A stretch of DNA of 44,453 bases from an uncultured bacterium (GCA_964632485.1 CAZWDO010000008.1:124001-168453), one strand, 5' to 3'. Shown: positions 8,022 through 34,763, numbered from the stretch's first letter. The notes: generated from the letters alone by a model not told the origin. Numbers and translations are program-made.

Positions 8022-9068
8022 ATGAAGATAATTTTCGATTTTCGTTCCGATACGGTTACGCGACCTACCCTGGCGATGAGGCAAGCAATGGCCGAAGCGC
8101 CGGTAGGAGATGATGTTTTACGGGAGGATCCAACGGTGAATGAATTGGAATCGTTGGCCGCCAATATGATGTGCAAGGAATCGGCCTTGTTTGTACCTTC
8201 CGGTACATTTGGCAATCAGGTGTGTCTGATGACGCATTGTCAACGGGGAAATGAAGTGATTATCTCCGAGCAGGCGCATATAATCGCGCATGAAGTAGGA
8301 GCGGCATCGGTTTTGGCTGGTGTGCAGTTACGCGCTATTAATCCGGCGCGCGGCTGGCTGGAATGGGGGGAAATAGAGCCGCGGATTCGTCGGGGAGAGG
8401 ATATCCATTATCCCTGTACCGGATTGATTTGTTTGGAGAATGCGCTATCCAATGGAGATGTTCAGCCACTGTCAGTGATGCGAGAGATATATTTAAGTGC
8501 TGGAATGCTGAAAGTGCCGGTCCATTTGGATGGCGCGCGGATATTCAATGCTGCGTTGGCATTGGGAGCATCGGCTGCGGATATCGCTTCCTGCGCCGAT
8601 TCAGTGATGTTTTGTCTGTCCAAGGGATTGTCCGCGCCTGTAGGATCCCTGGTCGTCGGAACGCGCGAATTTGTGGAGAAGGCGCGAAAAATGCGTAAAT
8701 TGATGGGTGGCGGAATGCGTCAGGCTGGCATTATTGCTGCCGCTGGCATCATCGCGCTGCGTGAAATGACCCGCCGTCTGGGTGAAGATCATCGCCATGC
8801 TCGTATTCTGGCTGAAATTTTTGCTCGAAATTCTCTATTTGAAATCGATTTGGATCGGGTAAAAATCAATATGTTTTTTGTCCGTTTTCGGGATACTGCT
8901 TTTCGCGGTCGGGAAGATGAATTGGTCGAACGCCTGGCCCGGGTGAATATTCTGACATACCCGCCGGAAAACGGTTGGATTCGGTTTGTCACTCATGCGG
9001 ACATTCCGGCGAATGCTATTGAATATTTTGAGGAACATTTAAGTCAGATTTTGTCGTCAATGGCATAA
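8022..9068 (+). CDS. ltaE: Low-specificity L-threonine aldolase (PLP-dependent)
   Basis: DFRSDTVTRPT, VGDDV, FVPSGTFGN, HLDGARIFNA, CLSKGL and GGGMRQAG motifs. Start moved to the ATG at 8022 behind AAGGAG. Confidence 0.93.
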   Translation: MKIIFDFRSDTVTRPTLAMRQAMAEAPVGDDVLREDPTVNELESLAANMMCKESALFVPSGTFGNQVCLMTHCQRGNEVIISEQAHIIAHEVGAASVLAGVQLRAINPARGWLEWGEIEPRIRRGEDIHYPCTGLICLENALSNGDVQPLSVMREIYLSAGMLKVPVHLDGARIFNAALALGASAADIASCADSVMFCLSKGLSAPVGSLVVGTREFVEKARKMRKLMGGGMRQAGIIAAAGIIALREMTRRLGEDHRHARILAEIFARNSLFEIDLDRVKINMFFVRFRDTAFRGREDELVERLARVNILTYPPENGWIRFVTHADIPANAIEYFEEHLSQILSSMA

Positions 9069-10295
9069 ATTTTACCGTTTTTCATAACGTATTCAGCCAG
9101 ATTGACTCCCATCAGATAAGGAACCATTTCGGGTGACGGGTTGCGCCAGATAATCAGATCGGCCTGATATCCGGGAGCGATACAACCGATGCGTTCATGG
9201 CAGCGCAGGGCATAAGCCGCCTGGATCGTTACGCTGTTCAGCAGTTCGGCAAATGAGCAGTGATAGCGGAGAGCGGCCAGATGCAGCATCAGTGGGATAC
9301 TCAGACAGGGCGCGGATCCGGGGTTGAAATCAGTGGCCAAGGCGGCGATCCCGCCGGAATCGAGAAACTGCCGCCAGGGAGCCGGGTATTCATGGCCCAG
9401 AACAAGTTCGGCTACCGGCAGGAATAGCGCGCAGATATCACTCTGCGCCAGACGGGATATTTTATCTTCTGCAATGAGTTCCAGATGGTCCAGGGAATCA
9501 AGCTGAAATTCCAGGGCGAGTTCAACAGCGCCTATATCATGCAACTGGTTGGCATGAGCGCATAAATGGTAGCCTAATTCATGGGCTGTTTTAAAAATTA
9601 TCCGCGCATCTTCAACTGAATACGCGTTTTCTTCAATAAAAATATCGCACCGTTGACAATATTTCCGAAATGCCGGGAGCATCTCCTTGATCAGCTCATG
9701 GAAATATTCATCTTTTGATTTGGTTTTTGGATAAACATGAGCCCCCAGAAAAGTGGGAATCAATTCTACCGGCTGTATTCGGTTCAATTCGGCAATCACC
9801 TGCAATATTTTTTCTTCCTGAAAAAAATCGAGTCCATACCCGGTCTTGACTTCCATCGTGGTCGTACCCTGACGCAGCGCCTGCCGAAGAAAGAAAAGTC
9901 CCTGACGGATCAACTGTTCTTTTGAACTTTGATGCAGCGCTTGGACTGTGGCGTGAATACCGCCTCCCTGCCGTTGAATCTCAAGATATGTTGCGCCCTG
10001 CAAGCGGGCATAGAATTCTCCGGATCGTTCTCCGGCAAAAATCAAATGGGTATGAGCGTCAATAAATCCCGGAGTTACACTCCGTTCCTGTCCGACAATA
10101 ATCAACGCGTTTGGATTCTGAGGTGAAANNNNNNNNNNGATTGGGTCCGACTGCCTGGATCAGATTATCCCTAATAAGGATATCAACGTTTTCCAATATG
10201 TCTAATTTTTGTATTGCGTTTCCGCGTAATGGAAACGGCGCCGGAGGCGTGAGCGCCCGACGGATATCCTTGATCAAAATTTCGTTGGGGCTCAA
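9044..10295 (-). CDS. hutI: Imidazolonepropionase (one gene spanning the N gap at 10129-10138)
   Basis: ORFs 10059..10295 (N-terminal beta-sandwich) and 9044..10105 (PGFIDAHTH, GGGIHATV, EVKTGYGL, TFLGAH, ATDFNPGSAP) join across the gap. The TTG start abuts the hutU stop. Confidence 0.9.
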
Positions 10296-11984
10296 TTACG
10301 GAATCCGATTGATTTGAATCTGATGGTTGTTTACAGTTTCCAGCGCTTCAGGGTATCCGGCATCGAAATGTCGGGCCACACCAATTCCTGGATCAGTTGT
10401 TAAAACGCGCTCCAGTCGGCGAGCTTTTTGTTCCGTGCCGTCGGCGACGATCACCATGCCGGCATGGGAAGAGTACCCGATACCGACTCCGCCGCCGTTG
10501 TGGAAACTGACCCAACTGGCGCCATTAACTGAATTAAGAGCGAAGTTAAGTAACGGCCAGTCGGCGACGGCGTCACTTCCATCCAGCATCGCTTCGGTTT
10601 CGCGGTTGGGTGATGCGACTGAACCGGTATCCAGGTGATCCCGTCCGATGACGATTGGCGCCTGAATTTCTCCGTTGGCAATTAATTTATTCATTTCCAG
10701 AGCAAAACGAGCCCGTTCGCCATATCCCAACCAGCAAACCCGATTGGGTAGTCCCAACTGGGGAACCATTTTTTGCGCTTTTAGTATCCATCGCCGTAAG
10801 GGTAGGTTTTCCGGAAACATTTCCAGCGCCAATTGATCGAGCCGCTGAATATCCTTAATATCCCCCGATAAGGCTGCCCAGCGAAATGGACCGCGGCCCT
10901 GGCAAAACAGTGGGCGTATATACGCTGGAACGAACCCCGGATAGAGGTATTGACCTTGAGTATCGCGTACGGCCAGTCCTCCGATTTCCGCTTGCGCCCG
11001 TAAGTTGTTGCCATAGTCAAAACAGATGGACCCTTGCTTCTGAAAATCCAGAACAGCCTGAGTGTGCGCTACCATGGCGCTATATGAACGACGGCGGTAT
11101 TCATCGGGATTTTTTTCAAGTAACCGCAGATTGTCTTCCAAATCTCCGGTAGGTATATAGGCTTTCCAGTCGTGAGCGGAAGTTTGATCGGTAACGATAT
11201 CAGGAATAAATCCGGTTTTTATAAGATAGGGATGGATTTGCGCGGCATTTCCAACTAATCCGATTGATAGGGGTTTTTTGAGTTTTCTATATTCTTCAAC
11301 CCATTTCAAGGCTTCTTCGACCTTATCGGTCATTCGATCGCAATATCCTTCGTTGACTTTACGGGCAACACGGTCCGGCCGGACTTCCACATTAAGAATG
11401 ATCGCATCGTTCATGGTGGCGGCCAGAGGCTGGGCGCCCGACATTCCTCCCAGACCGGCGGTCAAAATTACTTTCCCGGCCAAAGAATCTACCCCCCATT
11501 CTTTTTGGCCCAGAGCGGCGAAGGTTTCATAAGTACCCTGAAGTATCCCTTGGGTGCCGATATATATCCAACTGCCGGCGGTCATTTGCCCGTACATCAT
11601 CAGTCCGGCCCTGTCCAACTGGTCAAAATGATCCTGGTTCGACCAATGGGGCACTAGATTGGAATTCGCGATAATCACTCGTGGAGCTTCGGGATGGGAG
11701 GGAGCAATATAAACGGGTTTGCCGGACTGGACGCATAAGGTATGACGATCGTCCAGTTTTTTCAAAATTTCAACAATTTGATGATATGCTTGCCAATTTC
11801 GGGCCGCGCGGCCAGAACCCCCGTAAACAATCAGGTTTTGCCAATCAATAGCCACATCCGGGTCTAAGTTATTCATCAGCATCCTCAATGCCCCTTCAGC
11901 ATCCCAGTTGGGACAACGGCGCTGGTTTCCCCTCGGCGCGCGTATCGGGGCTGTGGGACGAAATTCTTCGAACATGGGTCTCAT
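10296..11984 (-). CDS. hutU: Urocanate hydratase
   Basis: [81 protein letters not shown] motifs. Confidence 0.97.
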
Positions 11985-12035: not shown

Positions 12036-14135
12036 TCAAGCCGAGGGTGATTCGCAAACCCTGACCTGGTTGCGGCCATTACGTTTTGCCTGGTAAAGGG
12101 CATCATCAGCGCAGCGGATGAAAGTATCCATTGTATCCGCCCGGGACCCAAGCAAATCGGAAATCCCCATACTGAAAGTAATTTTTAAATTGTGGGAATG
12201 ATATTTAAATGTTTGGTTTTCGATAATTGAGCGGATTTTTTCGGCGACAATGAGCCCCTGCACTAAATCGGTATCAGGGAGTATGATCATAAATTCTTCC
12301 CCGCCATACCGGCCGAAAACATCCTCATTGCGCAAATGCTCGCGGATTAGTTTTGAGCTTTGGTGAAGAACCAGATCACCGGCCAGGTGTCCATATTTAT
12401 CGTTGAGGGTTTTAAAATGATCGATATCCAGCATCATGCAGATAAGGTTTAATTGGTGTCGCTGAGCGCGGCTAAATTCCCGCATGAGGACGGTAAAAAG
12501 AAAACTTCGGTTATAAACCTGGGTCAGTTCATCCGTAATGCTGTTAATATATAGAATTTGATTTTTTTCTTCCAATTTTTGATTTACTTCCTCAAGAGTC
12601 AAGTTTTGTTGGCTAATTTTTATCTGTTTCTCCTCAATTTCCTTATTTTTAAACGTTAATTCAGAGTTAACGCTTTTTAATCGGCGTCTGCTTTTCAGAA
12701 TAATAACTGCCAGAACAGCAAATCCCAGCAACATAAACAAAGTGGTTACGATGAGCATCTGCTGGCGTTGCACGACTTGATATTGAATATCCAGATTTTT
12801 TTTTAGAAGTAAGTTTTCCTGCTCTTTTTTTTCAACGTCATAGCGAAATTTCAAACCTGCTATTTTTTGCTCTAAATCGACATTAGTGATACTGTCCTGG
12901 AGTTCAACATGTTGTATATAATACATGTAAGCATTTTTAAAATCGCCTTGAGCGCTGGCTAATTCAGCGTATGTTTTATAAATATCTCGCATATAGATGC
13001 GAAAATTATTTCCCACGGCCAGTTTTTTAGCAGCTTCCAGATAATGCTGGGCGATGATGTAGCTGCCGGAAGCGATATGACACCGCGCCAGATCGATATT
13101 TGTTGAGCAAAGTCCCAATTGATCGCCGATGGTTTCCTTGGTTTTAATCGATCGTTCCAGATAAAAAATAGCCTCCGGGTATTTTTTTTGTTTTAAATTG
13201 ATACGGCCGATAACACTCAACGCATCGGCTACCCCCGTTTTTATATTGCCCTGTTCACTCTCTTCAAGGCAGCGCTCGCTGTAAAACAAGGCGCTGTCTA
13301 TATTATTCGCATTGAGATGAATCGTGTTAATCACAGATAAAACCATGACCACACCCACCCTTATGCCATCAATTTCAGCCATTTTTTCATAAATACCTAA
13401 TGAGATGTTCGCTTGGATTAAGGCTTCCTCATAACGTTCCATGGTATTATAGTATTTAGCCAGATTGAAAGCGGTCCATGCGTATCCTTCTTCGTAATCA
13501 ATTGCTTTGAAAATTTCAGATGCTTCAATCAGCGCTTCCAACGCCCGTTCATGATCTCCCAACAAGCGGAGAATATTACTGATACTATTTAAAGCGGACC
13601 CAACGGTTTTTTTGTTGTCAACTTTTTTAGAAAGATTAAGGGCTTTTTGATATTCCTTGTACGCTAATGGATATTGCATAGAATATTGATAAGCCTGGCC
13701 GATGCGGTTGTGGATAATTCCCTGATAGAGAACATCATCGTTTGCTTCAAAAATCTCTAACGCTATATTAAAATAAACTAAAGCCGAATCATACGCCCGA
13801 ATATTGAGAAACGCATACCCATACAAATAAGTCAGTTGAGCGAAACATGAATCGCTTTTATTTGCCTCAGGCATAGCCAGCCCCATCCGTGCATAATGGA
13901 TAGCCGAATCCGGCAGCCGCAGGCTCAAGGAATCAGTTAACTCGCATATAAAGCGTAGTTTAGCAACCCCGTTTGCCTGGTTAATTTGTGCGCGCAATGA
14001 ATCAATGAAAGGTTGGGCGTGAAGTGTCGGGGCAACGACGAGCGTATAGGCAATATAAATGATTATGCCCCCAATGAATATCGATTTATAGCAGGTTTTA
14101 ATGCGCGCAATACGGCATAAAAAAATATGACTCAT
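12036..14135 (-). CDS. Membrane-anchored TPR-sensor diguanylate cyclase
   Basis: Signal/TM segment, TPR-like helical repeats, TM helix, coiled coil, then a GGDEF domain (DIDHFK, GHLAGD, RYGGEEF, with RxxD I-site RNED). Confidence 0.92.
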   Translation of the reverse strand: MSHIFLCRIARIKTCYKSIFIGGIIIYIAYTLVVAPTLHAQPFIDSLRAQINQANGVAKLRFICELTDSLSLRLPDSAIHYARMGLAMPEANKSDSCFAQLTYLYGYAFLNIRAYDSALVYFNIALEIFEANDDVLYQGIIHNRIGQAYQYSMQYPLAYKEYQKALNLSKKVDNKKTVGSALNSISNILRLLGDHERALEALIEASEIFKAIDYEEGYAWTAFNLAKYYNTMERYEEALIQANISLGIYEKMAEIDGIRVGVVMVLSVINTIHLNANNIDSALFYSERCLEESEQGNIKTGVADALSVIGRINLKQKKYPEAIFYLERSIKTKETIGDQLGLCSTNIDLARCHIASGSYIIAQHYLEAAKKLAVGNNFRIYMRDIYKTYAELASAQGDFKNAYMYYIQHVELQDSITNVDLEQKIAGLKFRYDVEKKEQENLLLKKNLDIQYQVVQRQQMLIVTTLFMLLGFAVLAVIILKSRRRLKSVNSELTFKNKEIEEKQIKISQQNLTLEEVNQKLEEKNQILYINSITDELTQVYNRSFLFTVLMREFSRAQRHQLNLICMMLDIDHFKTLNDKYGHLAGDLVLHQSSKLIREHLRNEDVFGRYGGEEFMIILPDTDLVQGLIVAEKIRSIIENQTFKYHSHNLKITFSMGISDLLGSRADTMDTFIRCADDALYQAKRNGRNQVRVCESPSA

Positions 14136-14491: not shown

Positions 14492-15451
14492 TTATTGGAT
14501 TAATCCGTTGGATAGTAGATTTTTTATCAATAAAAATGCTTTGCTTTTTTCCTGGGCACTGGTATTAAGAAAAACTTGATTGGTTAAATCCTTCAACAAA
14601 CCTGTTTTTTTTAAGCATTGATTAAATAAATCCGGATATAGAAAGTAAAAATGGAACTCCCTGTTCATTCGGTCTTTATTCATATGAAAATAGTGAACCC
14701 CCGCAATTTTTTCTTTTACTTTCCTTTTAGTATATAAAATTTTGTTTTCGGCTATTGCATCAGACAACACGCAATTCCATTTATAGGCATCAGCCTGATC
14801 GGTTGATTCATTATATAAATAATTCATTGCGAATTGATCGCTTCCCCATTCCTGATCGGAAATAAAACCGGATTGAACTAATTTTTGAAATTGGTAGAGT
14901 TTGTTTAGAAAAGATAAAGCATTGCCGCCCATGAATCCACCGTTTATATGCCCTCCGAATTGATCCAAAAGAAAATCATATTTTTTCATCATTATCGTCC
15001 ATTCAGTAGGGTATTGTTTAATTTTGCCTCTCAACGGCCGATTTCGGCTAATTTCAGTAGAGTAAACGCAACCGTGACAATGCTCGATTTTTTGGAAAAG
15101 ATGTTGAATATCATCTTGAAACCAGATATCCGCATCAAAATGAACAAATGTAGTATCCGTTGGATATTCCTCGATTATAGGTATCACATCGAGCAATCTT
15201 CGATTGACAATCAGTTTCTCTTTATATCCGTTGGGAAGAACGCGGCGGATGAATCTAATGTTCAGCGATTCTAAAGCCCTTTTAATCGGATGATCGATTC
15301 CATAGTCCAGAATGAATATTTCATTTTGATAATGGCCCAAGGTACGTAAACTGATTGCCCATTCCAATAAATAAATACCAGAATAGTAGCTTGCGCTGGT
15401 AAAAATGACCTGCTTATTAGTCAAATAAGGGCCCATTCGCATCGTTTGCAA
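14492..15451 (-). CDS. GT-A fold nucleotide-diphospho-sugar transferase-like protein
   Basis: SLRTLGHY...ILDYG, DxD motif HFDADIWF, INGGFMGG, SDQFAMNY, KWNC and VHYFH. The true start may be the TTG at 15424 (TTGA overlap with the upstream stop). Confidence 0.65.
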   Translation of the reverse strand: MQTMRMGPYLTNKQVIFTSASYYSGIYLLEWAISLRTLGHYQNEIFILDYGIDHPIKRALESLNIRFIRRVLPNGYKEKLIVNRRLLDVIPIIEEYPTDTTFVHFDADIWFQDDIQHLFQKIEHCHGCVYSTEISRNRPLRGKIKQYPTEWTIMMKKYDFLLDQFGGHINGGFMGGNALSFLNKLYQFQKLVQSGFISDQEWGSDQFAMNYLYNESTDQADAYKWNCVLSDAIAENKILYTKRKVKEKIAGVHYFHMNKDRMNREFHFYFLYPDLFNQCLKKTGLLKDLTNQVFLNTSAQEKSKAFLLIKNLLSNGLIQ

Positions 15452-16227
15452 ATATAGTAAAATTCGGATTTAATTTTACCAGTTGTTTTTAATAGCATTT
15501 CCCGATAGGTAGGTGAATTAAATATATTATTAAGTGTTTGCTCGCAAATATTACCAATAATTACTTCCTTTTTCCAATCCATGCAACAAATAATCATGTC
15601 TCCGTTAATATGGAAATTAATCCATTCGTTGTTTCTTTTCCGTTTACAACCCCGAATTGTATGATGGTAGATGGTATTGGTATAAAAACCTGCCCTTGAT
15701 GAATATTCAAAGAGGGTCCATTCCCCATTCTTTTTTTTCCATGAGGGAGAAACCTTAACAACCAAATTAGAATTAAGTTTAATATACGTAATGGATTGAA
15801 TCATATATTGATAATCTTCCGGGGAGATATTGGATTGAGTAATATAATTGTATGAATTGCTGTCATAACCATAAAGTGAAATATATATCTGAGTGAAATT
15901 GGATGCAATTATATCTGGGGCATATTTTGGAACAAGAAGGCCATTGGTTGAGAAAATTGTATATGCATGGGGGAGTATTTTTTTGACATATTGAACGCGT
16001 TCAAATAATAATGGATCTAATAATGGTTCATTTTGAAAATATAAATGAATATTTAGATTAGGAGTAATTATTTCATTATCAATTTCTTTTTTTAATTCAT
16101 GGATGATTCTTTTAAACAATTTCATATCCATGATTTTCCCGGAATGGGAAATACTCTTATAGGGGCACATACGACAAGCTGCATTGCATGCGTCGATAGT
16201 TTGAATCTGGACAAAACAAATTTTCAT
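15421..16227 (-). CDS. Radical SAM protein with SPASM/Twitch domain
   Basis: CNAACRMC, NEPLLDP, STNG; C-terminal GC...NGDMIICCMDW...IGNI...CKRC. Confidence 0.9.
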   Translation of the reverse strand: MKICFVQIQTIDACNAACRMCPYKSISHSGKIMDMKLFKRIIHELKKEIDNEIITPNLNIHLYFQNEPLLDPLLFERVQYVKKILPHAYTIFSTNGLLVPKYAPDIIASNFTQIYISLYGYDSNSYNYITQSNISPEDYQYMIQSITYIKLNSNLVVKVSPSWKKKNGEWTLFEYSSRAGFYTNTIYHHTIRGCKRKRNNEWINFHINGDMIICCMDWKKEVIIGNICEQTLNNIFNSPTYREMLLKTTGKIKSEFYYICKRCEWALI

Positions 16228-16255
16228 TCAGTTCCGGCCTGAAATCCATATCACG

Positions 16256-17161
16256 CTATTTTACCCAGTCGCAATGATGGCAAATATTGTAATTTTTATA
16301 ATCCAATCGCATAAATTCTTTGCGTATATCCTTAAAAGAGGAGTTGTTCCAGATATCCTTAATTGATTGGGTGTTTGTGTCGCCTAATATTATATCGCCG
16401 TTGAAATCCATGCAGCAGGGAACGACTTCTCCAGTATATAGAACGACCATGGTGTTCCATGGGAATTCACATGTGAATTTCTTTTCACCCGCTATATTGA
16501 ATTCTTTACCGCGTCCATAATTATGTAATTGAGTAATGTTCAATTTATCATTCCAAACTGGATTGATTTGAGATTTGAAAAGATGGACAAATTGTTGTAT
16601 CTGGCGGTTATTCGTTTCCATTGGGATATACTGAATGACGATACTGGGTTTGGTTTTATTCAATTTTCTTCTGACATTGAAAAAATTGAGCGTATTGGAT
16701 AAGGTTTGCTCGAAATCTAAACCTCGCATGGTATTATTATATGTTGGAGCATCTGTACCGTAGAAGCTGATTTTTATCCGGTCCAGTCCATTTTGGATTA
16801 ATGTATGCGCCAATGAATCGTTTAATAACGACCCATTGGTTACTATATAGGTGAATTTGATTTTATAATCTTTGGCAAATTTGATTTTTGCAGGCAGATC
16901 CGGGTCTATAAGCGGTTCGCCATAATTATGCAGATGAATTCGATTCACTTGTGAGTATCGCGAAATTTCCCGAATCAGTTTTTCAAAGAGAAGGAAATCC
17001 ATGATACCAGTAGGTCGCGTCATTTTATCCCGTGGACACATCACACAATGGGCGTTGCATAGATTAGTGTTTTCTATCCAAACTTGATTGGGGAATTCTG
17101 ATTTTTTGAGTCGTTGGAGTCTGACTACGCTTTCCATACATATGGAGGAAAATCGATCCAT
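16256..17161 (-). CDS. Radical SAM protein with SPASM/Twitch domain
   Basis: CNAHCVMC, GEPLIDP, TNGSLL; CEFPW...GEVVPCCMD...CHHC. Confidence 0.93.
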   Translation of the reverse strand: MDRFSSICMESVVRLQRLKKSEFPNQVWIENTNLCNAHCVMCPRDKMTRPTGIMDFLLFEKLIREISRYSQVNRIHLHNYGEPLIDPDLPAKIKFAKDYKIKFTYIVTNGSLLNDSLAHTLIQNGLDRIKISFYGTDAPTYNNTMRGLDFEQTLSNTLNFFNVRRKLNKTKPSIVIQYIPMETNNRQIQQFVHLFKSQINPVWNDKLNITQLHNYGRGKEFNIAGEKKFTCEFPWNTMVVLYTGEVVPCCMDFNGDIILGDTNTQSIKDIWNNSSFKDIRKEFMRLDYKNYNICHHCDWVK

Positions 17162-17175
17162 AACGCTTCCTTAGG

Positions 17176-18087
17176 TCAATAAATCTCTTCACATTGCAGG
17201 CAAACCGGATAGGTTTGATATTGGATTGCCATAAAATCATGTCGTATTTGATTCATCCGTTCACCCTTCCATATATTTTCGATTGTATCGTCATGCAAAT
17301 TTCCAATAATCTGCTCCCCATTGAAATCCTTGCAACACGTCGAGACTCGCCCATCTTGTAAAATCATCAGAGTCCACCAGGGCCGTTCACAGGTAGAGTA
17401 AATTTTTTTTAAAGAAATGTAATCTCTACCGCCACCGTAATTGTGTAATCTACCAAAATTAAAACTGTCGCCCAAAGCCGGAGTAATCAACGAGGAAAAC
17501 TGATGATAGAATTTTTTGACTGAATCCTGCTTTTCTAAGATGGGAATATAGCGCAGGGTAATTGATGGTTTATGCATTCCGATTTGCTTTCTAAACCAAA
17601 ACAGATTAAAGATATTATTTAAAGTTGAATGGTAATCCAATCCGCGCATTGTTTTTTCATAGGTATTCTGACGTGTCCCATAAAAGCTGATGATAATTTT
17701 ATCAATACCGGCACTTAATATCGATTGGGTTAACTCCGGAGTCAATAATGAAGCATTTGTCCAAAATAAGACACACGAGATTTTTAATTTTTTTGCGATT
17801 TGAATACGTAGTGGGAATTCTTTATCGATCAGTGGTTCGCCATATCCCTGAAGATGTACCGATTGAATCGGATGCTGAGCAATTTCTTTAATTATTTTTT
17901 CAAATAAATTGATCGACATGATCCCGCTAGGGCGTGTCATCTTTTCCCGCGGGCATATTATGCAAGCGGCATTGCACAAATTGGTGTTTTCGATACGCAC
18001 TTCTTGCGGGAAATTGCCGACTTTCAGCTTTCTTAACTGTAAAACACTTTGAAGGGTTTTTGTTTCGAATTCTATTTTATTATTCAT
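17176..18087 (-). CDS. Radical SAM protein with SPASM/Twitch domain
   Basis: CNAACIIC, GEPLID, TNASLL; CERPW...GRVSTCCKD...CLQC. Confidence 0.93.
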   Translation of the reverse strand: MNNKIEFETKTLQSVLQLRKLKVGNFPQEVRIENTNLCNAACIICPREKMTRPSGIMSINLFEKIIKEIAQHPIQSVHLQGYGEPLIDKEFPLRIQIAKKLKISCVLFWTNASLLTPELTQSILSAGIDKIIISFYGTRQNTYEKTMRGLDYHSTLNNIFNLFWFRKQIGMHKPSITLRYIPILEKQDSVKKFYHQFSSLITPALGDSFNFGRLHNYGGGRDYISLKKIYSTCERPWWTLMILQDGRVSTCCKDFNGEQIIGNLHDDTIENIWKGERMNQIRHDFMAIQYQTYPVCLQCEEIY

Positions 18088-18190
18088 TAACTGATAGTTG
18101 TCCTCAATAATGATTTGATTGAGAATCGTATGAAAATGTAAGTAAAATATTAAACTGTGAGAACTCCAGTATATATTCTTCCCAACAAGA

Positions 18191-19111
18191 CTATGATTTA
18201 GGTCGCCGGCCTGAGAGAAAATTATTTATAACTTCGAGAATTTTAAATTCCCGATTAGAAAAATGAAGAACATAACAAGGAATTTGCTGAATAAATGAAT
18301 GGAGTGAATTTTTAATTCTTTCTCCAAAAATAGGTTGAAAAAAGGGTACGAAATGGAAAAAAAATTCTAGCTGAGATATCAATACCCAATCTGGAATGGG
18401 CATTACTTCTAAAAAAGTTTTCGTATCTTGCTGAAGTAATAAACAAAGTTTCATCGGTACGGGTGGATAAGATGGCAAATCAGAATTTATATCATATTGG
18501 TAGAACGGTGAGGGTACCAGCATAAAAGAATCATTGAGTTTCTGGATGAATATTCCGTCATCGCCGTAGAAGGTAACACGGTCTTTCAGCATTTGATAAA
18601 TAGTGCTTTTTCCGACGCCGCTCGAACCCAGACATACAATCCCCCGGTTCAGATAATCGAATCCAACTCCATGTAACGCAAGGCCATCGTTTAGCAGATG
18701 GATTAGGGAAAAGATGAAAAAAAAACCATTCGTATCGAGGTACTGCCACTCTTGACATAAATCCTCAGCTATCCAGTGTCCCGTTCGCGTATTGGGTTCT
18801 AATTCAAGCGATTGGGCACAGTAATTCATCCGTAGTCTGATTTTTTTGTCAGAACCTATGGATTTCCGATTAAAATAGAGTGGCATGTAATCGATTTTAA
18901 AATCATCTTCATGGATCAAAGGGAGTTCTTTATACTCTTTGCGATAGATAAGATTAAATCCATCAAAGGGAGTTAAATCATCCTTAATACTTTTATTAAT
19001 AAAGGGTTGAACTTTATCTGGGATGCCAAAAGGAATCGAGGAATCCGAGTGGACCCTGAATCGGTTCTTAAGGATTCCGCATTCAACCGAATTGATGTAG
19101 GAACTACTCAT
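18191..19111 (-). CDS. HprK-related P-loop kinase (ScmC/PadeK-like, RiPP-associated type)
   Basis: LHGVG (cf. LHAS), Walker A GSSGVGKST and the downstream GDD acidic pair, in the HPr-kinase order. Confidence 0.75.
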   Translation of the reverse strand: MSSSYINSVECGILKNRFRVHSDSSIPFGIPDKVQPFINKSIKDDLTPFDGFNLIYRKEYKELPLIHEDDFKIDYMPLYFNRKSIGSDKKIRLRMNYCAQSLELEPNTRTGHWIAEDLCQEWQYLDTNGFFFIFSLIHLLNDGLALHGVGFDYLNRGIVCLGSSGVGKSTIYQMLKDRVTFYGDDGIFIQKLNDSFMLVPSPFYQYDINSDLPSYPPVPMKLCLLLQQDTKTFLEVMPIPDWVLISQLEFFFHFVPFFQPIFGERIKNSLHSFIQQIPCYVLHFSNREFKILEVINNFLSGRRPKS

Positions 19112-20001
19112 TTATGACGTGTGGTTGGATCCTGGTTTTGATAAACATCTTCATTGAAAAAATTGATAGTGGTTTGATTTTCAGCGCCGGAAAGACTGAA
19201 TGTATCGGCGTCACATCCGTTAGCGCAACGGGAGGACGGAGTGGCGCCAACAGTGCAGGAACCGCCGGCGCGCAGGCCGATTGAGCACTGGGTGTTATCT
19301 CCCGGCGAACCGTTTACGCAGTTTCCGTCGCCGTTGTTGCAAAAATCATTGGCATTGTTGCCCAGAATGCAATCCCCTCCGTAATTTCCAGCGATGTTTC
19401 CCATCAGGCAGCTATTCTGCGGCCAGTTGCCGTTATTGCAATCTCCCCAGTTATAATCATCATCACACCCGGCGCCGCAAGCCTGAGTGGCCTGTTCCCC
19501 GCCCCAACAGGTTCCGTAAGCATTATCTCCCCCTTCATTACAGGCAATCTCCGCATCGCTGCCAACCAAACAGCTCCCCCCATAAGTACAGGTTCCTGAG
19601 CTATAAGTATCACAACCACTTGCGCATCCCAAAATGGCATCGCAACCATAACGACAATCAGCATCCACATCATCGTTGCCGCTATTGCAATTATAAGTAA
19701 TTGTGTCTGTGTCGCTTCCGTTGTAACAAAAAGCTGAATCGGTTGAAGAGCCTGAATTGCAGACATCCGCATTATCGGCATTTCCGCCGCTGACGCAACT
19801 GCCAGCCGCATTGGCGCCTATATCGCAGGCCCAGCCGGCTACTGCTCCTTGCCGGCATTCCTCGGTAGCTACCGATCCCGCCAGACAATCAATCGAAGCG
19901 TTCGATCCCAATTCACAACTGGTAACCGAAGTTTGACCCACGGCCTGGCTTGTTAATGACATAAAATCGTAAATTTCCGGCTTGACATAGTTCTTTTTCA
20001 T
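19108..20001 (-). CDS. Cys/Gly-rich repeat protein with YxxP leader; candidate very large RiPP precursor
   Basis: ATG at 20001 behind AAGGG gives MKKNYVKPEIYDF..., followed by 23 CxxG repeats (27 Cys in total). The stop overlaps the kinase start (ATGA, 19108-19111). Confidence 0.75.
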   Translation of the reverse strand: MKKNYVKPEIYDFMSLTSQAVGQTSVTSCELGSNASIDCLAGSVATEECRQGAVAGWACDIGANAAGSCVSGGNADNADVCNSGSSTDSAFCYNGSDTDTITYNCNSGNDDVDADCRYGCDAILGCASGCDTYSSGTCTYGGSCLVGSDAEIACNEGGDNAYGTCWGGEQATQACGAGCDDDYNWGDCNNGNWPQNSCLMGNIAGNYGGDCILGNNANDFCNNGDGNCVNGSPGDNTQCSIGLRAGGSCTVGATPSSRCANGCDADTFSLSGAENQTTINFFNEDVYQNQDPTTRHK

Positions 20002-20184
20002 AAGATTATTCCCTTTGAATTTCTTATTAAACTTATCATAATTTATTTTTTGAATCAATCAGTAAGCAATACTATAAATAAAATATATAACTTTTTTAAA
20101 AAGTCAATAAAAAAATTATTATAAATCTTTTAAATATTTATCAGGATCAGTTCGTTTTTATTTGAGCGAAACTATAATAATTGG

Positions 20185-22044
20185 CTACAATTGGCCGTTC
20201 CACCAGTAATAGATGATGGAAGCGTATTCGTGGAGAATTCCCTCAATCTGGTGAAGTTGGATTTTCTGTTGAAAGAGGGGAAGCCATGATTCGCGATGGG
20301 CATAATACCCCCCATGGGAGGGAGGTGTCCACGTGATTTCCCATTCGGGAGCATGCCTGAGGGCGACTAACTCCACCCGTTTCATGTGATAGGGGGAACT
20401 AATCAGAATGATCTGCCGCCACCCGAATTTTTGTGTGAGTTTATATGAATTTTGTACATTTTGGATAGTATTGCTGGCCTTGTCATCTAATAAAATCAGT
20501 GAATCGGGCACACCCAATGCGATGGCCAGACTTTTCATTACCAATGGTTCCTTGAACACATACATGAAACCGGATGAAAAAATCAGATGCCGGGCGTATC
20601 CCTGGTGAAAAAGCTGAACAGCCGTTTGCACGCGTTCCTCATACCCCTGACCGGCTTCCCCCGATTCGCCCACACCGCCGGCGAAAACAACAATGACGTC
20701 GGCCGGTTTCGGCAAATCACCTTTTTTCAGAGGCCGGGCCAGATACCAGAATAAGGGGGTGAAAAACACTAAATAAATGAAAAAGACAATCCAGGCGGCA
20801 AGTATCAGGGTTTTATAGCGAAACTGATAATAGTTTTTGGCAAAATAACGCAACCAATTGGTTTCCAGTTCCGAGTTCTTGCGATTGAGCGCCGTTTCAA
20901 TTTTGTCGTTCATAAATTCGATTTTGTTTTCCCAACTATTGGCGGTGGCTATCGAGCGACGGTGAGCGAATTGCGTGTCAGTTTGCGGAGCAGAGATAGT
21001 TTGGGAAAGCGCCTGGGCGAATTTTTCCGGATTGTCGGCAATTGTTACAACTCCCGGATAGTCGCGCTCAAAATACCGAATTTCGGCTAAATCCGTTGCT
21101 ACCACCGGTTTTCCCCAATAGAGATATTCATTGAGTTTCGTAGGATAAACATTTTCCGTATAATCGGTTTTCAAATAGGGAATGATGCAGGTATCAAACT
21201 GGGAGATATAATGAGGTAAATCAGTATGGTCCTTTTTTCCAAGTAAATATACATTGGGGTGATTTTCGATTTCACTAATATCGGTTTGGCGGGGGCCGAT
21301 AAAGACAAATGAATATTCGGGGAGCGAACGAATAACCTTCCGCAGTAAATCGAAATCAATCCATTTATGGATTCCCCCCACATACCCGATTCTCGGCTGG
21401 GGTATCGCTTCAATGTCCTTGAAAGAGAGCGGTTCAACCTTAAAGTTTTTTAGCGAAACGCCGAAGGGCACTAAATAGCATTCTGCGTTCCATTGCTGGG
21501 CTTTATCCATGAGTTTATGCGATGTAACAAAGACAATATCCGCCATGGAAAAAATTTTCTGTTCACTGCGCAGAATTTTCGACGCTTTGGCTGAACTGTT
21601 TTCAAAACTGTCGATGCAATAGTAGATAAAAAGCTGCGGATTGATTGTGGGAACTAACGTTGCCACTAATGGAGTAGGCAGATAGGTGATAACGATAGGA
21701 TTTTCGAAACGCATCAATTTGTTCCAGCGACGCAAGGTTTGACGCAGGATGAACGCATTGAGCCAGGTTATCGGACGGCTGTAGGGAAACGGCAATAGGA
21801 CCGGTGAATATAAGTAGAGGTGTTCGTTTACTTTACGAAATCCCCGAAAGGAGTGGAACCAATTGAACAGGCGTTTCTTCAATCGGCCGAAATCATGGAT
21901 GCCAGGGGAGCGGACTCCCGTATTTTCGATAAACAGGATGCGATTACCGGCCGATGCTAATTGAGAGGCTATTTCCTGATGGCCTTGCCAGATGAAATCC
22001 CAATCGATAGTCGAAATGTAGATAATATCTTGTTTTTGTATCAT
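20185..22044 (-). CDS. GT-B glycosyltransferase (TuaH/GT4-like) fused via a TM helix to a YdcF/ElyC (DUF218) domain
   Basis: N-terminal WDFIWQGHQ, IGYVGGI, PTKLNEYL...GKPVV; TM segment ILAAWIVFFIYLVFF; C-terminal ADVIVVFAGG, ERV, FSSG, SNTIQN, SSPYHMKR and LHEY. Confidence 0.85.
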   Translation of the reverse strand: MIQKQDIIYISTIDWDFIWQGHQEIASQLASAGNRILFIENTGVRSPGIHDFGRLKKRLFNWFHSFRGFRKVNEHLYLYSPVLLPFPYSRPITWLNAFILRQTLRRWNKLMRFENPIVITYLPTPLVATLVPTINPQLFIYYCIDSFENSSAKASKILRSEQKIFSMADIVFVTSHKLMDKAQQWNAECYLVPFGVSLKNFKVEPLSFKDIEAIPQPRIGYVGGIHKWIDFDLLRKVIRSLPEYSFVFIGPRQTDISEIENHPNVYLLGKKDHTDLPHYISQFDTCIIPYLKTDYTENVYPTKLNEYLYWGKPVVATDLAEIRYFERDYPGVVTIADNPEKFAQALSQTISAPQTDTQFAHRRSIATANSWENKIEFMNDKIETALNRKNSELETNWLRYFAKNYYQFRYKTLILAAWIVFFIYLVFFTPLFWYLARPLKKGDLPKPADVIVVFAGGVGESGEAGQGYEERVQTAVQLFHQGYARHLIFSSGFMYVFKEPLVMKSLAIALGVPDSLILLDDKASNTIQNVQNSYKLTQKFGWRQIILISSPYHMKRVELVALRHAPEWEITWTPPSHGGYYAHRESWLPLFQQKIQLHQIEGILHEYASIIYYWWNGQL

Positions 22045-22234: not shown

Positions 22235-24821
22235 TTAATGTATCACCAGGAATCGATGAATGATCGGCCGGATACCGATTCCGGACATGCTGATAAAATA
22301 GACCCCGGAAGGATAATTGGACACATCGATTTTTAAAATTTTTTCGTTTCGCGCCCATGCCCCCTCATCAATTTTCCGTCCAGCCATATCGAAAATATAA
22401 AATTTTCCATGCGTCGATAGCGGATTATTAAATGAAACATTTAGCTTTAACCGGCATGGATTGGGGAAGAGGGTTAGACTATTCTCTAATGGGTGTTCTG
22501 TGTTAAGTTCTTCAATTCCTGTTGGCGATTGAGTATGAACTTGCCATACTAATTGGCGGAGATAAAACCCTTTTTTCATCAAATGGACACGTAACGTGTG
22601 TGCGCCGTTAGAGACATTTTCCAGTTTGGCGCGGATATAGGTGCGGCTGATCGAACAATCCCCGGTAATTTCGGTGGAATCGAGCCAGCAATGCGCGCTG
22701 TCGGTTATTAGACTGTCAGCGGAAAGCAGTTTGATCTTCAGGGAGATTGTTGAATCGTAAATGATGGTATCGGGCGGGGGAGTCAGGCTGGTAATGGTGA
22801 TGCTGTCTTTTTTGAGTGAGAGGGTTTTACTGATCTGATTGTTGGTCGTATATATCTCGTTGAAAGCCGTGTCGGGAGTCAGCGTCATTTTAATTTTCGC
22901 GCGGTAATAAGCGCCGAAAGAATCGATAGGGAATGCGAAGCTTTCGCGAATCGTTTCCAGGGGGGCCAGCGGTGGGACTTGGAACGCGCTTTGCGCCAGA
23001 GTGTCTCCGCTGGCATAGTCGCTGATCGAGAAATTATACTGAGCGGAGGTGGGAGTGGCGATAACCCCCGCATTTTTAACGAAACAGGTCAGCCATAGTG
23101 AATCATCCGAATATTTATAATCGTAAAATGTAACCAGGTCGGTAGCAGGTCGCATGTAATTGAAGCAATGGACTATGTTGAGGTTGGCATAACCGTTGCT
23201 TTCTCCGGGCCAGTCGTAGTGGATTTTAATACCGTAGTAAGACGGATATGACTCGTTATTAGCGTTTCCGTAGGGATCGTTGAAAATCGCGATGCGTCTT
23301 TCTGGTACATAACCGGTGGCGACTATGTAATGTCCCGAACTGGTGATGGAATTGAGTACCACCATAGGTTGTTGTTGATCAATTTCGCTTTTCAGTTTAT
23401 CAAAATAGGGACTCCAATCGGTTTCAGAATAGATACCGTGTTTTTTGATCAGGTCCCGCATATAGCCTTTAGTATCCTGCAGACTGTTCCAGTAGATGTA
23501 CCCGTATATACCCCAGCCGGTACTTCCATTGCTGCGGGTATTCCAACGGTCATAGGTGACCCCGTTAAGGCTGTAGATTTCCGAAATATAGAGACCGTAA
23601 GTACTTTGGTGCGAAAAGGGGGTATAGCAGTTGACGGGCCAGGGTTTGAGTACGTTGTAATAGATCAACCCCATGATGGTGGATGCCGCGCCGCAGCAGC
23701 CGCCGCCCAATCCTGAACGTGATGGGCTGATATCATAGACCTGGTTAAAATAGATTGTATCGAAAGCAGCAATGGTAACATCTTCAGCCGGGTGTTGAAA
23801 AGGTGGTTGGATTAGAGATATCTTGGCGGGAATATTCGCTTGGGCAGATTGGGCTGGACTGGCTTTTATTCTCTTTTTAATTATGGGGGTGTCGATTAAG
23901 CGCAGCCCGCCATGGGGAAGATATCGATATGATTTTTGTCCCGTATCAATTAAGATGGCTTGGTGGCCGGGATTGATCATCTGGCGATATAATAGTGGGG
24001 AGGTTGACCAGGATTCGGGTTGGAAGTGGTTTTCCCGGGCATGGAATACGTTTTTGCGGCTGCGGGCGGGACGGGTTTCATTGTCATACTCGATTTCAAG
24101 GTAATGAATTTGATCACTGTTCAGCCATAATGGATCATGGCCTTTAAAGCGAGCAATTCGGGTATTGGCTTCCAAATCATGGATGTAGCACCCGCTCGAG
24201 GCGGTTAGCCCCAGGATATAACGGCCGGAAGGAGACCATTGGACTTGAACAAACTGCTCGCCAGGTTCGTGGTATGATGGTAGATCCGTTTCCAGCCGCC
24301 AGTTGNNNNNNNNNNCCCCGGGGATCGGACCAGCAGAGAATTTCTTCGTTTTGAGGAGAGAATATGGGTAAATTGGAAAACCCGATGCCGGGCATTTTTT
24401 TTACGGGCTGGAATTGAGAGTCGAGAATGATGAGCGTATCCCCGCAAAAAAAAGCGATCCATTGCGAACCGATGGCAGGAACGCTAAGGGTTGACTGCTT
24501 TTGCGCGATGAAAATGGTTTGCTGAGAGCGCCAATCATATATCCCGGCGCTTTGGAGTGGGTGGTAAGGATGAATCTGCTCATTGAAATCCTTGAATCCA
24601 ATCAGGCAACGATCATTGTTGATAGAATAATAACCGCCGGAGAAGGGATGCTGGGTAATAGCGTGGATGGCGCCATCCGGGTTAACGATAATCAATCGCT
24701 CCTGAGAATCGCGATACAATGTTTGCGCATTCATTGGGTATTTATTGTTGGGAAACAGCAGAAAACCGGCGATTAGGACCAGCCATGCCAGCTTATTCCG
24801 GAGAGAAACTCTAATGGTCAA
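22235..24821 (-). CDS. Secreted protein: propeller-like N-terminus, C39-like (papain-fold) peptidase, CARDB/Ig-like domains, Por/T9SS-type CTD; one gene spanning the N gap at 24306-24315
   Basis: After the gap, the frame NWRLETD...QWSPSGRYILG...HDLEANT is open into ORF 22235..24175. Motifs: Q...GCCGAAS, GHYIV, NDPYG; tail LFPNP...IFDMAGR...PSGVYF. Confidence 0.7.
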
Positions 24822-29418: not shown

Positions 29419-30663
29419 TTATAAAACCCTAATAATATTTAAGCTTAATATAAAATATAAACCGCTCCAAATAACATTAGTTAGGAAGGTTAACCAGGCA
29501 GAAGCAAGTATTCCATATACAGGTATCAGATAAAAGTTTAATATTAAATTAATACATCCAGTAAATAATGATATAGTTAGAAAATAATTTGGATGTTTAA
29601 ATGTAACAATACGTTGAAAAGGTACACCCAATGAAAAAATAAAAAGTCCAGAAACTAATGGAAAAATTAAATTCTTTGAACTAAGGTATGATTTATTTGT
29701 AATCGTGGCAATAAAAAAATCTTTAAAACTGAATATAATAAGCAGTATCACTAATCCAAAAAAAAATTCATATTTGAGAGTCTTTTTTACTAATTTGACA
29801 ATATCAATAAGCATATTTTTATTCCATAAATGAGCAATTTTAGGGTATAGTACGAACTCTAAAGGTTGCAGTAAAACAAGAATCAAATTAGCAACGGAAT
29901 AGACGGCTGCGTATTCTCCCAATTTTTTGGCATCGAGTAAATGAATGATAATGAAACGGTCTCCGGAATTTAGAATAAAACCGAAACTTGAACCGATTAA
30001 AATTGGAATACTATATTGTAACATTCGTTTAAGATCGATAATTGCCAATGAACTCATTTTAGTATTTAATAATTGAAAAAGCAATGTCCCTATTGTTGAA
30101 ATAATTAAAAATATTATAACCGGTCTAAGGGAACCAAAAATTTTAATTATTAGATAGCAACCGATTAATTCAATAAAAAAATTGCATAGTTTGATATACA
30201 AAAGGCAGGAGAATTTTCTTTTACCAAGTAAAAAATTAAAGAGCAATTGATCAAAAGTAAAAGAAATTAACCAAATAATTATCAGCCAATTAAACTCCTT
30301 GATAGTTGTTCCAAAGATTAAATATGAAAAATCAAATACCCATGGCAAAATCAAAAGTGGTATGGATGTACAAGCTATGATTACAGAAGTTGTAACAAGT
30401 CTTTCAAAATCATGTTTTTCATCCATAAAGCGAATAATCGATAAAGAGAGACCCAGTGATAAATATGGAGCAAATAGAGTCAGGATTAGTTTAAATTGAT
30501 TGTAAATTCCAAATTCCCATTTACTCAATAGGGTGAGTATTGGGATAAGCAGGAAACTTTTAGAACTTATAATAAAATTTATTGCATACGATAAAAAAAT
30601 ATCGTTGCTAAATTTTAATTGCAAACCATTAAATAGGAATGTTTTGTTCATAATAGAAAACAA
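29419..30663 (-). CDS. Wzx-type oligosaccharide flippase
   Basis: About 12 hydrophobic segments; LLIPILT...EFGIY, GDRFII, LGEYAAVY and NLILNFYLIPVYGILASA motifs. Confidence 0.85.
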   Translation of the reverse strand: MFSIMNKTFLFNGLQLKFSNDIFLSYAINFIISSKSFLLIPILTLLSKWEFGIYNQFKLILTLFAPYLSLGLSLSIIRFMDEKHDFERLVTTSVIIACTSIPLLILPWVFDFSYLIFGTTIKEFNWLIIIWLISFTFDQLLFNFLLGKRKFSCLLYIKLCNFFIELIGCYLIIKIFGSLRPVIIFLIISTIGTLLFQLLNTKMSSLAIIDLKRMLQYSIPILIGSSFGFILNSGDRFIIIHLLDAKKLGEYAAVYSVANLILVLLQPLEFVLYPKIAHLWNKNMLIDIVKLVKKTLKYEFFFGLVILLIIFSFKDFFIATITNKSYLSSKNLIFPLVSGLFIFSLGVPFQRIVTFKHPNYFLTISLFTGCINLILNFYLIPVYGILASAWLTFLTNVIWSGLYFILSLNIIRVL

Positions 30664-30747
30664 TTCATGATTATATCTTTAGATATTTATTGTCTAAAAT
30701 ATTGTTTAAAAACATAAAATTTAAAATAATATTTAGAAATTACGACT

Positions 30748-31425: not shown

Positions 31426-31440
31426 ATATAATCTTTAGAC

Positions 31441-32937: not shown

Positions 32938-32947
32938 GATACCCTAG

Positions 32948-34744: not shown

Positions 34745-34763
34745 TAATAATTTTTAAAATTTT

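Follow-up and report, generated by a model that had tools for sequence, protein, structure and literature searches.

A protein-sized CxxG-repeat precursor with its own HprK-like kinase, next to a probably separable radical SAM-glycosyltransferase module, in an uncultured bacterium

We analysed a stretch of 44,453 nt from an uncultured bacterium (GCA_964632485.1 CAZWDO010000008.1:124001-168453), called here the window, to whose full length the coordinates refer. Its own genome, G000, is a 4.45-Mb assembly with a GC content of 43.8%. ORF calling places six ORFs, all on the minus strand, in a block at 14492-20058. They encode a cysteine-repeat precursor of the kind known from RiPPs (peptides that are ribosomally synthesized and then modified post-translationally), an HprK-like kinase, three short radical S-adenosylmethionine enzymes (rSAM1 to rSAM3) and a glycosyltransferase (GT). 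The reading we favour, with a probability of roughly 60%, is that the block holds two modules, probably separable: a precursor-kinase pair resembling the SynChlorMet (SCM) cassette, with maturases encoded elsewhere in the genome, and a sugar module. It is built on gene content, paralogy, synteny in relatives and protein folds, from which we infer all of the chemistry. The parts of the block are as follows.

20002..20184, minus strand: upstream region of the precursor, 183 nt, AT-rich (18% GC), with a sigma-70-like TTGACT-16-TATTTT at 20107-20080, a predicted site that is a consensus match only
19108-20058 from TTG, minus strand: precursor ORF; the ATG at 20001 gives 297 aa
19918..20001, minus strand: precursor leader, residues 1-28, MKKNYVKPEIYDFMSLTSQAVGQTSVTS; presumed binding part for PqqD, a RiPP recognition element (RRE)
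19204..19917, minus strand: precursor core, 27 Cys in all and 23 CxxG units, each about 10-11 residues long
19108..19203, minus strand: Cys-free C-terminal tail of the precursor, which differs between paralogs, and stop
18191-19111, minus strand: kinase, 306 aa, P-loop protein of predicted HprK/PEPCK fold, ScmC-like
18088..18190, minus strand: gap between kinase and rSAM1, 103 nt, 29% GC
17176-18087, minus strand: rSAM1, 303 aa, short radical SAM enzyme with an abbreviated SPASM/twitch-type C-terminus (5 Cys)
16256-17161, minus strand: rSAM2, 301 aa, rSAM1 paralog of the same architecture
15421-16227, minus strand: rSAM3, 268 aa, shorter radical SAM/SPASM enzyme, forming a conserved gene pair with GT
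14492-15451, minus strand: GT, 319 aa from TTG or 314 aa from the likelier ATG at 15436; predicted GT-A, GT8-like fold

A first-pass annotation of this DNA had described six co-oriented, tightly packed genes with AT-rich bounds, and this layout is confirmed. The kinase start overlaps the precursor stop as ATGA, subsequent gaps measure 103, 14 and 28 nt, and rSAM3 and GT then overlap; the flanks have 18% GC upstream and 34% GC downstream, where 356 nt of intergenic DNA follow. The ATG at 20001 is favoured as the precursor start: the N-terminus read from it, MKKNYVKPEIYDF, agrees with those of all paralogs and matches all relatives. Scanning of the block with Pfam and NCBIfam models detected Radical_SAM (PF04055) and SPASM (PF13186) above cut-off in all three rSAM enzymes and gave no match for the precursor or the GT, and the window scan detected no Rfam family and no tRNA.

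The precursor of the window, precursor A, belongs to a set. Searches by tblastn, hidden Markov model and regular expression revealed six dispersed precursor-kinase pairs in G000: the leader expression retrieves exactly six ORFs, of 214-377 aa with 16-30 CxxG, and tblastn with the kinase places a paralog beside each of the six precursors. Their common leader is MKKxYxxPEIFxF, with K2, Y5, P8, I10, F13, L16, G22 and T24 invariant. The repeat unit is C-x-x-G-x-x-A/P-x-x-x; among 71 ten-spaced repeats of nine precursors, G(+3) is present in 100% and A/P(+6) in 91%, and in precursor A the spacing from Cys to Cys is mostly 10-13 residues. The earlier claim of a protein-sized precursor with a leader and a Cys-repeat core is supported. 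Kinase F, the maturase operon described below and precursors A, C and F all have an upstream site resembling TTGACA-17-TATAAT. Comparison of the six precursor upstream regions gave no motif of at least 9 nt in at least four of them, with only A/T-rich 7-8-mers in common. N-glycosylation sequons were considered in the precursors and dropped, their register being inconsistent (1-8 N-x-S/T per precursor).

The maturases came to light through relatives. Genomes of this lineage are sparse: among the first 40 relatives sampled, G001 belongs to the same family and G002 to the same order, the others sharing the domain only. In G001 the genes stand in the order PqqD, ScmE-like, ScmF-like, precursor, kinase. 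The best NCBIfam matches of its two rSAM proteins are ScmE (225 bits) and ScmF (287 bits), and its kinase matches ScmC. One of the G000 pairs, pair D, is orthologous to the G001 pair as a unit, the kinases being 52% and the precursors 53% identical. Orthologs of the G001 PqqD, ScmE-like and ScmF-like proteins (53%, 75% and 68% identity) lie together on another contig of G000, far from any precursor:

G000:C2:172017-174964 (L030:7972-10964), minus strand: maturase operon encoding a PqqD of 138 aa, a PqqD of 99 aa, an ScmE-like and an ScmF-like protein

The best NCBIfam matches of these rSAM proteins are again ScmE (219.4 bits) and ScmF (316.6 bits), and in the tree both they and their G001 counterparts group with the canonical proteins (support 98/94 for ScmE and 97/94 for ScmF). 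The 138-aa PqqD has an N-terminal hydrophobic segment and is membrane-anchored by prediction, whereas the 99-aa PqqD is soluble. This two-PqqD arrangement recurs in G002 (L113:6891-7622), which has the same stand-alone maturase set together with two pairs and one orphan precursor. Directly upstream of precursor D (G000:C3:78921-79064) we found a 48-residue PqqD remnant, 46% identical to the G001 PqqD, which by its sequence appears to be the trace of a rearrangement that parted the maturases from pair D. A profile of the six precursors has matches in six of 401 sampled genomes. Two of these relatives, G103 and G261, carry a full cassette of ScmE-like, ScmF-like, PqqD protein, precursor, kinase and second precursor, in which the precursors have only 95-99 aa, with roughly five to seven repeats behind the same leader. 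Maturases and pairs are thus linked in G001, G103 and G261 and unlinked in G000 and G002.

The surroundings of pair D deserve a word of their own. A 922-928-aa fusion of GT2, B12-radical SAM and methyltransferase lies convergent with the pair (G000:C3:81027-87006; in G001, L023:4781-10886), followed by a 287-294-aa protein of no known kind and two GT1 genes. Pair D is in this way a second precursor-kinase pair that adjoins sugar genes.

To place the system, we compared it with the SCM models TIGR04248-TIGR04252, whose cut-offs are 35 bits for the precursor ScmA (TIGR04252), 125 for ScmC (TIGR04249), 400 each for ScmE (TIGR04250) and ScmF (TIGR04251) and 100 for the PqqD-like ScmD (TIGR04248). 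The ScmC model has matches in five of the 401 sampled genomes. One genome has ScmD, ScmE, ScmF and ScmC all above cut-off and represents the canonical cassette; between its ScmF and ScmC lies a 55-aa ORF, MKYEKPEL...CTEGGNAGTCNIG, in which the leader recurs together with two repeat units. Two other ScmC-positive genomes encode peptides of 93 and 105 aa with seven CxxG, which score 29.2 and 16.8 bits with the ScmA model. The window precursor has no match to ScmA at E<=1, and the window kinase none to ScmC at E<=0.01. Kinase paralogs and orthologs reach 19.7-37.5 bits with ScmC, against 304 bits for the canonical protein, and 48 of 60 kinase-family relatives match this model weakly (best E 5.3e-13). 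With ScmD the G001 PqqD scores 22.8 bits; the G000 PqqDs match Pfam PqqD and, within NCBIfam, lasso-type PqqD models only. Taken together, these sequences describe what appears to be a divergent relative of SCM whose repeat was amplified to 15-30 copies. Since every protein stays below the curated cut-off, we do not file it as an SCM member.

Database searches with the precursor itself were of little help. Against 5.8 billion proteins precursor A alone had no match, itself included, and the six-precursor profile had one in the same database, a 265-aa protein with the length of paralogs D and E. Composition and gene calling interfere here, and this large database therefore says little about precursor distribution. 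An Atlas search gave a best score of 0.76, to be taken as leads only.

The cysteine content invites another reading, in which these proteins are not cross-linked and serve as cytoplasmic metal or redox buffers, like metallothioneins, or as structural repeats, with the P-loop proteins in a regulatory role. Cys accounts for 9% of the residues of precursor A, which is acidic, of low complexity and without signal peptide. Its Atlas model is disordered, with a pLDDT (predicted score in the local distance difference test) of 0.41 and a predicted template modelling score (pTM) of 0.19, and CrpA, an archaeal Cys-repeat protein, is discussed as a possible metal binder in the available part of PMC13692751. 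Such a model is, on the other hand, as expected of a substrate rather than of a folded protein. The YxxP-type leader is common with the short peptides of canonical PqqD/rSAM cassettes, and in G001, G103 and G261 the precursors stand in direct synteny with a PqqD gene and a pair of rSAM/SPASM genes. The repeat unit is moreover CxxG and not CxC or CxxC, the motifs typical of metal-binding proteins. We consider the buffer reading highly improbable.

For the two-module reading, the leader should be the part bound by PqqD. In a complex prediction, the soluble PqqD with precursor residues 1-45 scored 0.50, the best of three controls scoring 0.00. The mark applied is reached by 116 of 157 solved complexes and two of 215 mismatched pairs; at scores of 0.60 or less it is reached by just 18 of the 157, together with both passing mismatches. 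Contacts coincide between runs to at least 96%, and the partner has a pLDDT of 51 or more. This prediction lends weak support to leader binding, and its pass may reflect likeness to RRE-leader complexes already solved.

The six kinases share only 25-34% identity with each other, which indicates that the pairs are old. Across paralogs the C-terminal half, which is the kinase domain, is conserved and the N-terminal half very variable; GSSGVGKST, a Walker A motif (GxSGxGKS/T), is invariant in all six. With Pfam Hpr_kinase_C (PF07475) the window protein scores 19.5 bits (E 7e-4), below the cut-off of 33.3. Its AlphaFold2 (AF2) model has a pLDDT of 87.9, and the top Foldseek matches are HprK/P 1ko7 (E 2.2e-6) and phosphoenolpyruvate carboxykinase (PEPCK). 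A profile of 60 family members likewise retrieves PEPCK (1.7e-5) and HprK (5e-4) from the PDB. As modelled, the kinase has the fold of an HprK/PEPCK P-loop protein. The first-pass call of an HprK-like kinase of an SCM-like system is in this way supported by fold, profile and synteny. By analogy with the lasso-cluster homologs described in the available part of PMC8498205, it would phosphorylate Ser or Thr of a protein or peptide substrate. The family is large, with 2605 cluster representatives at E<=1e-10, of which only nine fall at E <= about 1e-39: six own proteins and three others. More distant kinases (E about 1e-20) occur in G009 (L027:3306-10064), G003 (L028:7500-9876) and G024 (L026:9837-17587). 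Two of these three loci, those of G009 and G003, include PqqD and an S24-like peptidase; a giant C25 peptidase and an rSAM gene are further features of G009 and G024, and a nucleotidyltransferase of G003.

A kinase beside a Ser/Thr- and Cys-rich precursor recalls a lanthionine-type route, in which Ser/Thr would be phosphorylated, then undergo elimination and Cys addition, while the rSAM enzymes do something else. Kinase-dependent dehydration is established for class III/IV lanthipeptides. Here, however, neither a lyase nor a cyclase domain turned up next to any pair, the conserved positions are C, G and A/P instead of S/T, and the conserved partners are PqqD and two rSAM/SPASM enzymes. Of all the readings considered, we give this one the least credence, hardly any.

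The three rSAM enzymes of the block had been taken by the first-pass annotation as maturases of the cassette, a role that we would instead assign to the ScmE-like and ScmF-like proteins, encoded with two PqqDs elsewhere in G000. All three carry CX3CX2C (at residue 38 in rSAM1). Their C-terminal domains have 5-6 Cys, fewer than the seven of a full SPASM domain as defined in the available part of PMC13692751. No N-terminal RRE is present, the rSAM core beginning at residues 14-38, and Pfam detects no PqqD within 14492-20001. Scores with ScmE and ScmF do not exceed 40.6 bits, and in the tree the three enzymes stand outside the ScmE/F clade; judged from these comparisons, they do not appear to be maturases of that type. 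The absence of PqqD, peptidase and exporter, also noted at first pass, holds for 14492-20001 and not beyond it: PqqDs are encoded on C2, and the second gene upstream of the precursor encodes a protein with a C39-like peptidase domain.

This last protein (22235-24175, 646 aa) combines the C39-like peptidase with CARDB and a sorting tail of the type IX secretion system (T9SS). Between it and the precursor, directly upstream of the latter, lies a GT1 (TuaH-like) fused to DUF218 (20185-22044). Of the G002 precursor-kinase pairs, one is followed by an S8 peptidase with a T9SS tail (L025:5561-9307).

rSAM1-3 group with enzymes of polysaccharide loci and of viral contigs. rSAM1 and rSAM2 are 44% identical, and rSAM1 has matches of 49 bits at most in G001 and G002. 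Relatives of rSAM2 occur in 90 of the 401 sampled genomes at E<=1e-25. We scanned the neighbourhoods of 13 of the 15 best loci, leaving out two near-duplicates. Most have polysaccharide neighbours, namely epimerase/dehydratase, methyltransferases, GT1, GT2, GT4 and GT9, and further glycerophosphotransferase, B12-radical SAM, ABC-2 transporter and lipid A acyltransferase. G000 itself carries similar enzymes in two polysaccharide loci, one of them in the window at 39516-40583. A foreign origin was considered on grounds of GC content and dropped: rSAM3 and GT have 31-35% GC against 43.8% for the genome, but kinase A, at 37.6%, is low as well, and the measure is not decisive.

The polysaccharide locus of the window extends over 29419-40583 and is low in GC (23-36% mostly, with one kb, 36001-37000, at 46%). 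It encodes a Polysacc_synt flippase, three methyltransferases, a B12-radical SAM protein, a FemAB-like protein, an NKWYS capsular protein, a GT1, a polysaccharide deacetylase and the rSAM/SPASM protein at 39516-40583. Within it, a 124-aa ORF (36254-36628) gives a partial match to DruA (Druantia).

The first-pass GT-A call for the glycosyltransferase had no sequence support and is confirmed by the fold of its AF2 model (pLDDT 89.4, pTM 0.88) in Foldseek. Matches are XXYLT1, WbbM, LgtC, LARGE1, alpha-1,3-galactosyltransferase and glycogenin (E 2e-9 to 2e-7, template modelling score 0.42-0.57), and an alignment of 31 sequences has an invariant DxD (D101, D103) within HFDADIWF. Sequence comparison is silent on this point: the PDB contains no match by sequence; with Glyco_transf_8 (PF01501), at Pfam E<=1, the window protein has none and one of 31 relatives reaches E 0.0087; hhalign with a GT8 protein aligned only the DxD region (E 0.071, not significant) and with a GT34-like protein was not significant either. 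The modelled protein therefore classifies as a GT-A, GT8/GT6-like retaining transferase on the fold search, which alone settles the family.

Relatives of this GT were found in 54 metagenome loci. An rSAM homolog lies within two ORFs in at least 33 of the 54; the number is a lower bound, several loci having a 339-aa rSAM beside the GT that fell short of the threshold. The GT is also present on six IMG/VR contigs, and many of the metagenome contigs look viral; among GenBank phages there is no match to the window GT, and a search of genome contigs gave three distant relatives, none with an adjacent rSAM. On viral or virus-like contigs the GT is found with one or two short rSAM/SPASM genes (L046-L052, L055, L070, L072, L075, L078, L087, L143-L148) among genes for PhoH, dUTPase, 2OG-Fe(II) oxygenase, phosphomannomutase, GT25 and homing-endonuclease. 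Judged by these neighbours, the viral set may be an auxiliary sugar module of uncultivated phages.

Does this module belong with the precursor? Its co-occurrence with the pair, which a single cassette would lead one to expect, is not observed outside the window. The rSAM/GT genes adjoin one of the nine precursor-kinase pairs of the order, being absent from the other five in G000 and from the three in G001 and G002, two genomes (92% and 98% complete) in neither of which the GT was detected. Conversely, no kinase or precursor occurs in any of the 54 GT loci, and none of the 15 best rSAM2 loci has the kinase, the precursor or this GT. A module found with one pair in nine and widespread without pairs counts, largely on the terms that the first-pass annotation itself had set, against a single six-gene system.

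Several observations nevertheless weigh against the two-module reading. The ScmE/F-, ScmC- and ScmA-like proteins all remain below the curated NCBIfam cut-offs, as given above. The six genes are packed tightly on one strand. Between 14000 and 20400 there are no terminator-like sites, where 5.2 were expected from shuffles, and the 103-nt gap at 18088-18190 contains neither such a site nor a usable sigma-70-like promoter; for this reason both modules are likely to be co-transcribed. Of the earlier proposal of one six-gene cassette, this continuity is the part that stands, while co-occurrence fails. Finally, the closest relatives of rSAM3 and GT form a nine-contig synteny group (including L041, L043 and L045), with rSAM3 orthologs at E 1e-69 to 1e-96 (51% identity to those of L043 and L045, clade support 100/100), and four of the nine contigs put the module beside a CXXX-repeat radical SAM peptide system. 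Its maturase exceeds the TIGR04115 cut-off of 350 bits, with scores of 418.7 and 399.8, and the partner protein is present. These clusters also hold a CXXX target with a twin-arginine translocation (Tat) signal, a CXXX_matur-GT61 fusion and sugar genes of 3-deoxy-D-manno-octulosonic acid (KDO) type:

L045:11424-11834: CXXX target
L045:12105-14219: CXXX_matur-GT61 fusion, 704 aa (also L035:2020-3750, L040:1489-3510)

Target, fusion and sugar genes, as a gene set, suggest glycosylation of a CXXX-repeat peptide, and the link would be to a second, unrelated Cys-repeat system with the module alongside. As the synteny-group contigs are one lineage, we weigh it as suggestive; none of the other 45 GT loci has CXXX components. 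The first-pass annotation had also stated that rSAMs confined to polysaccharide loci would contradict it: the closest relatives of rSAM1 and rSAM2 are mostly there, and rSAM3-GT is found in a CXXX cluster as well.

These observations bear on the alternative that all six genes make up one pathway, in which the precursor is cross-linked or otherwise modified by rSAM1-3, phosphorylated by the kinase and glycosylated by the GT, perhaps with an rSAM-tailored sugar. Beyond the uninterrupted packing and the CXXX neighbours, it could draw on the protein-glycosylating GT8 enzymes XXYLT1, glycogenin, UGGT and LARGE1 among the structural neighbours of the GT, and on the phosphoglycosylation of a lasso peptide after the action of an HprK-like kinase, as described in the available part of PMC8498205. 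Against it stand the eight pairs without rSAM/GT genes, the GT and rSAM2 loci without kinase or precursor, the SCM-type maturases encoded elsewhere, the restriction of CXXX components to four contigs of one lineage, and rSAM1-3 themselves (268-303 aa), which lack an RRE and cluster with enzymes of glycan loci. A single pathway is a possibility, though an unlikely one. About as doubtful, perhaps slightly more so, is the idea of rSAM3-GT as a glycosylation device for Cys-repeat polypeptides, placing an rSAM-tailored sugar on Cys, Ser/Thr or a phospho-residue and recruited independently by the SCM-like pair and by the CXXX system of L040 and L045.

In the two-module reading, module 1 (18191-20001) would comprise a giant ScmA-like precursor translationally coupled to its cognate ScmC/HprK-like kinase. 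The shared C2 operon would serve all six pairs, the soluble PqqD binding their common YxxP leader; the membrane-anchored PqqD hints at a membrane-associated step. By hydrogen abstraction, both the ScmE-like and the ScmF-like enzyme would link the sulfur of Cys to a carbon that lies within or adjacent to each repeat. Proceeding repeat by repeat, they would install Cys-derived cross-links, most probably thioethers, and precursor A could acquire as many as about 23-27 small rings. Each kinase would phosphorylate its own precursor, with specificity given by the variable N-terminal domain. Module 2 (14492-18087) may be a portable module for sugar tailoring and transfer, which would tailor a nucleotide sugar and transfer it most likely onto a glycan; that precursor A is its acceptor seems to us rather unlikely.

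Since its parts are those of a known, curated cassette, the system is not categorically new. What is new here are the protein-sized ScmA-like precursors, the six dispersed pairs served by one unlinked maturase operon, the second, membrane-anchored PqqD and a possible coupling to a glycosylation module. Amplification of the SCM repeat unit from two to 15-30 copies would have led to protein-sized substrates. The layout of one maturase set for many precursors, each with its private kinase, is unusual and offers a tractable test bed: 23 sites in identical register per molecule could serve to work out ScmE/ScmF chemistry, and the shared leader and private kinases form a natural experiment on how they divide recognition. 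If the rSAM-GT module did act on the precursor, this would be a new kind of protein glycosylation, by a module that is also present on viral contigs; if it were the glycosylation device considered above, the window would encode a cross-linked, phosphorylated and glycosylated 30-kDa RiPP protein.

Other genes of the window are a TPR-GGDEF diguanylate cyclase directly downstream of the GT (12036-14135), what looks like a histidine-utilisation cluster with urocanase and an amidohydrolase (9044-11984, the amidohydrolase at 9044-10105) and an AbiEii-type nucleotidyltransferase toxin gene (42256-42960).

Among known systems, the SCM cassette is the nearest. Both have a leader of YxKPxL type (KxYxKPxL on peptides of canonical cassettes) with CxxGxxA units, a ScmC-type P-loop protein, PqqD and two paralogous rSAM/SPASM enzymes, and the order PqqD, rSAM, rSAM, precursor, kinase is retained in G001. 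SCM precursors are of 49-55 aa with two repeats, whereas those described here have 198-377 aa with 15-30 and form six dispersed pairs with one unlinked maturase set and an extra membrane-anchored PqqD. An S24/S26-like peptidase adjoins the canonical cassette, and none lies beside the pairs here. A literature search found no publication on the SCM cassette, the supplements of PMC13692751 on bacterial radical SAM-associated Cys-rich proteins, which might include relatives, being outside it; as far as this search shows, the cassette itself is only computationally defined.

The lasso-peptide clusters offer a precedent for the kinase. According to the available part of PMC8498205, lasso precursors are phosphorylated on their C-terminal Ser by HPr-kinase homologs, with subsequent addition of a sugar in the case of pseudomycoidin. 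As with paeninodin PadeK and pseudomycoidin, an HprK-fold kinase stands beside a YxxP-leader precursor with a PqqD-type RRE, the lasso precursor being phosphorylated before further maturation and in one case receiving sugar on the phosphate. Our system differs by having no lasso cyclase or protease, a Cys-repeat substrate and divergent private kinases, and not all of its precursors end in Ser.

The CXXX system (TIGR04115/TIGR04119/TIGR04117) likewise has an rSAM-matured Cys-repeat target and adjoins rSAM3-GT relatives in L040 and L045. It differs in its maturase family, its C-x-x-x repeat and its Tat-signal leader, and is absent from the window. The short rSAM/SPASM enzymes of lipopolysaccharide (LPS), capsular polysaccharide (CPS) and O-antigen loci are 31-37% identical to rSAM1-3 and are flanked by epimerases, methyltransferases and GT1/2/4/9, while three such enzymes in a row beside a RiPP-like pair were seen only here. 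With the GT8 enzymes LgtC, glycogenin and XXYLT1 the GT shares the predicted GT8/GT6 fold and the DxD motif, and unlike them its family has no Pfam or NCBIfam model.

The closest precedent for a protein-sized substrate is that of Methanococcus voltae, where the repeat protein CrpA (28.8 kDa) receives ranthionine links from CrpC, according to the available part of PMC13692751. CrpA too is protein-sized (about 29 kDa), with a leader-like N-terminus, a Cys-repeat C-terminus and a low-confidence fold, and there an rSAM/SPASM enzyme cross-links the substrate through an RRE, as is proposed here too. Its repeat has 17 residues with C-X-X-Q/D, against 10-11 with C-x-x-G-x-x-A/P in our precursors, and CrpC (TIGR04463) has its own RRE, in place of a separate PqqD and two rSAMs. 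As presented in that part of the source, the system is archaeal and without kinase, whereas the one described here is bacterial and has a kinase. That radical SAM enzymes cross-link entire proteins is the 2026 result on CrpA/CrpC (PMC13692751), for which the SCM-like pairs could be a counterpart in bacteria.

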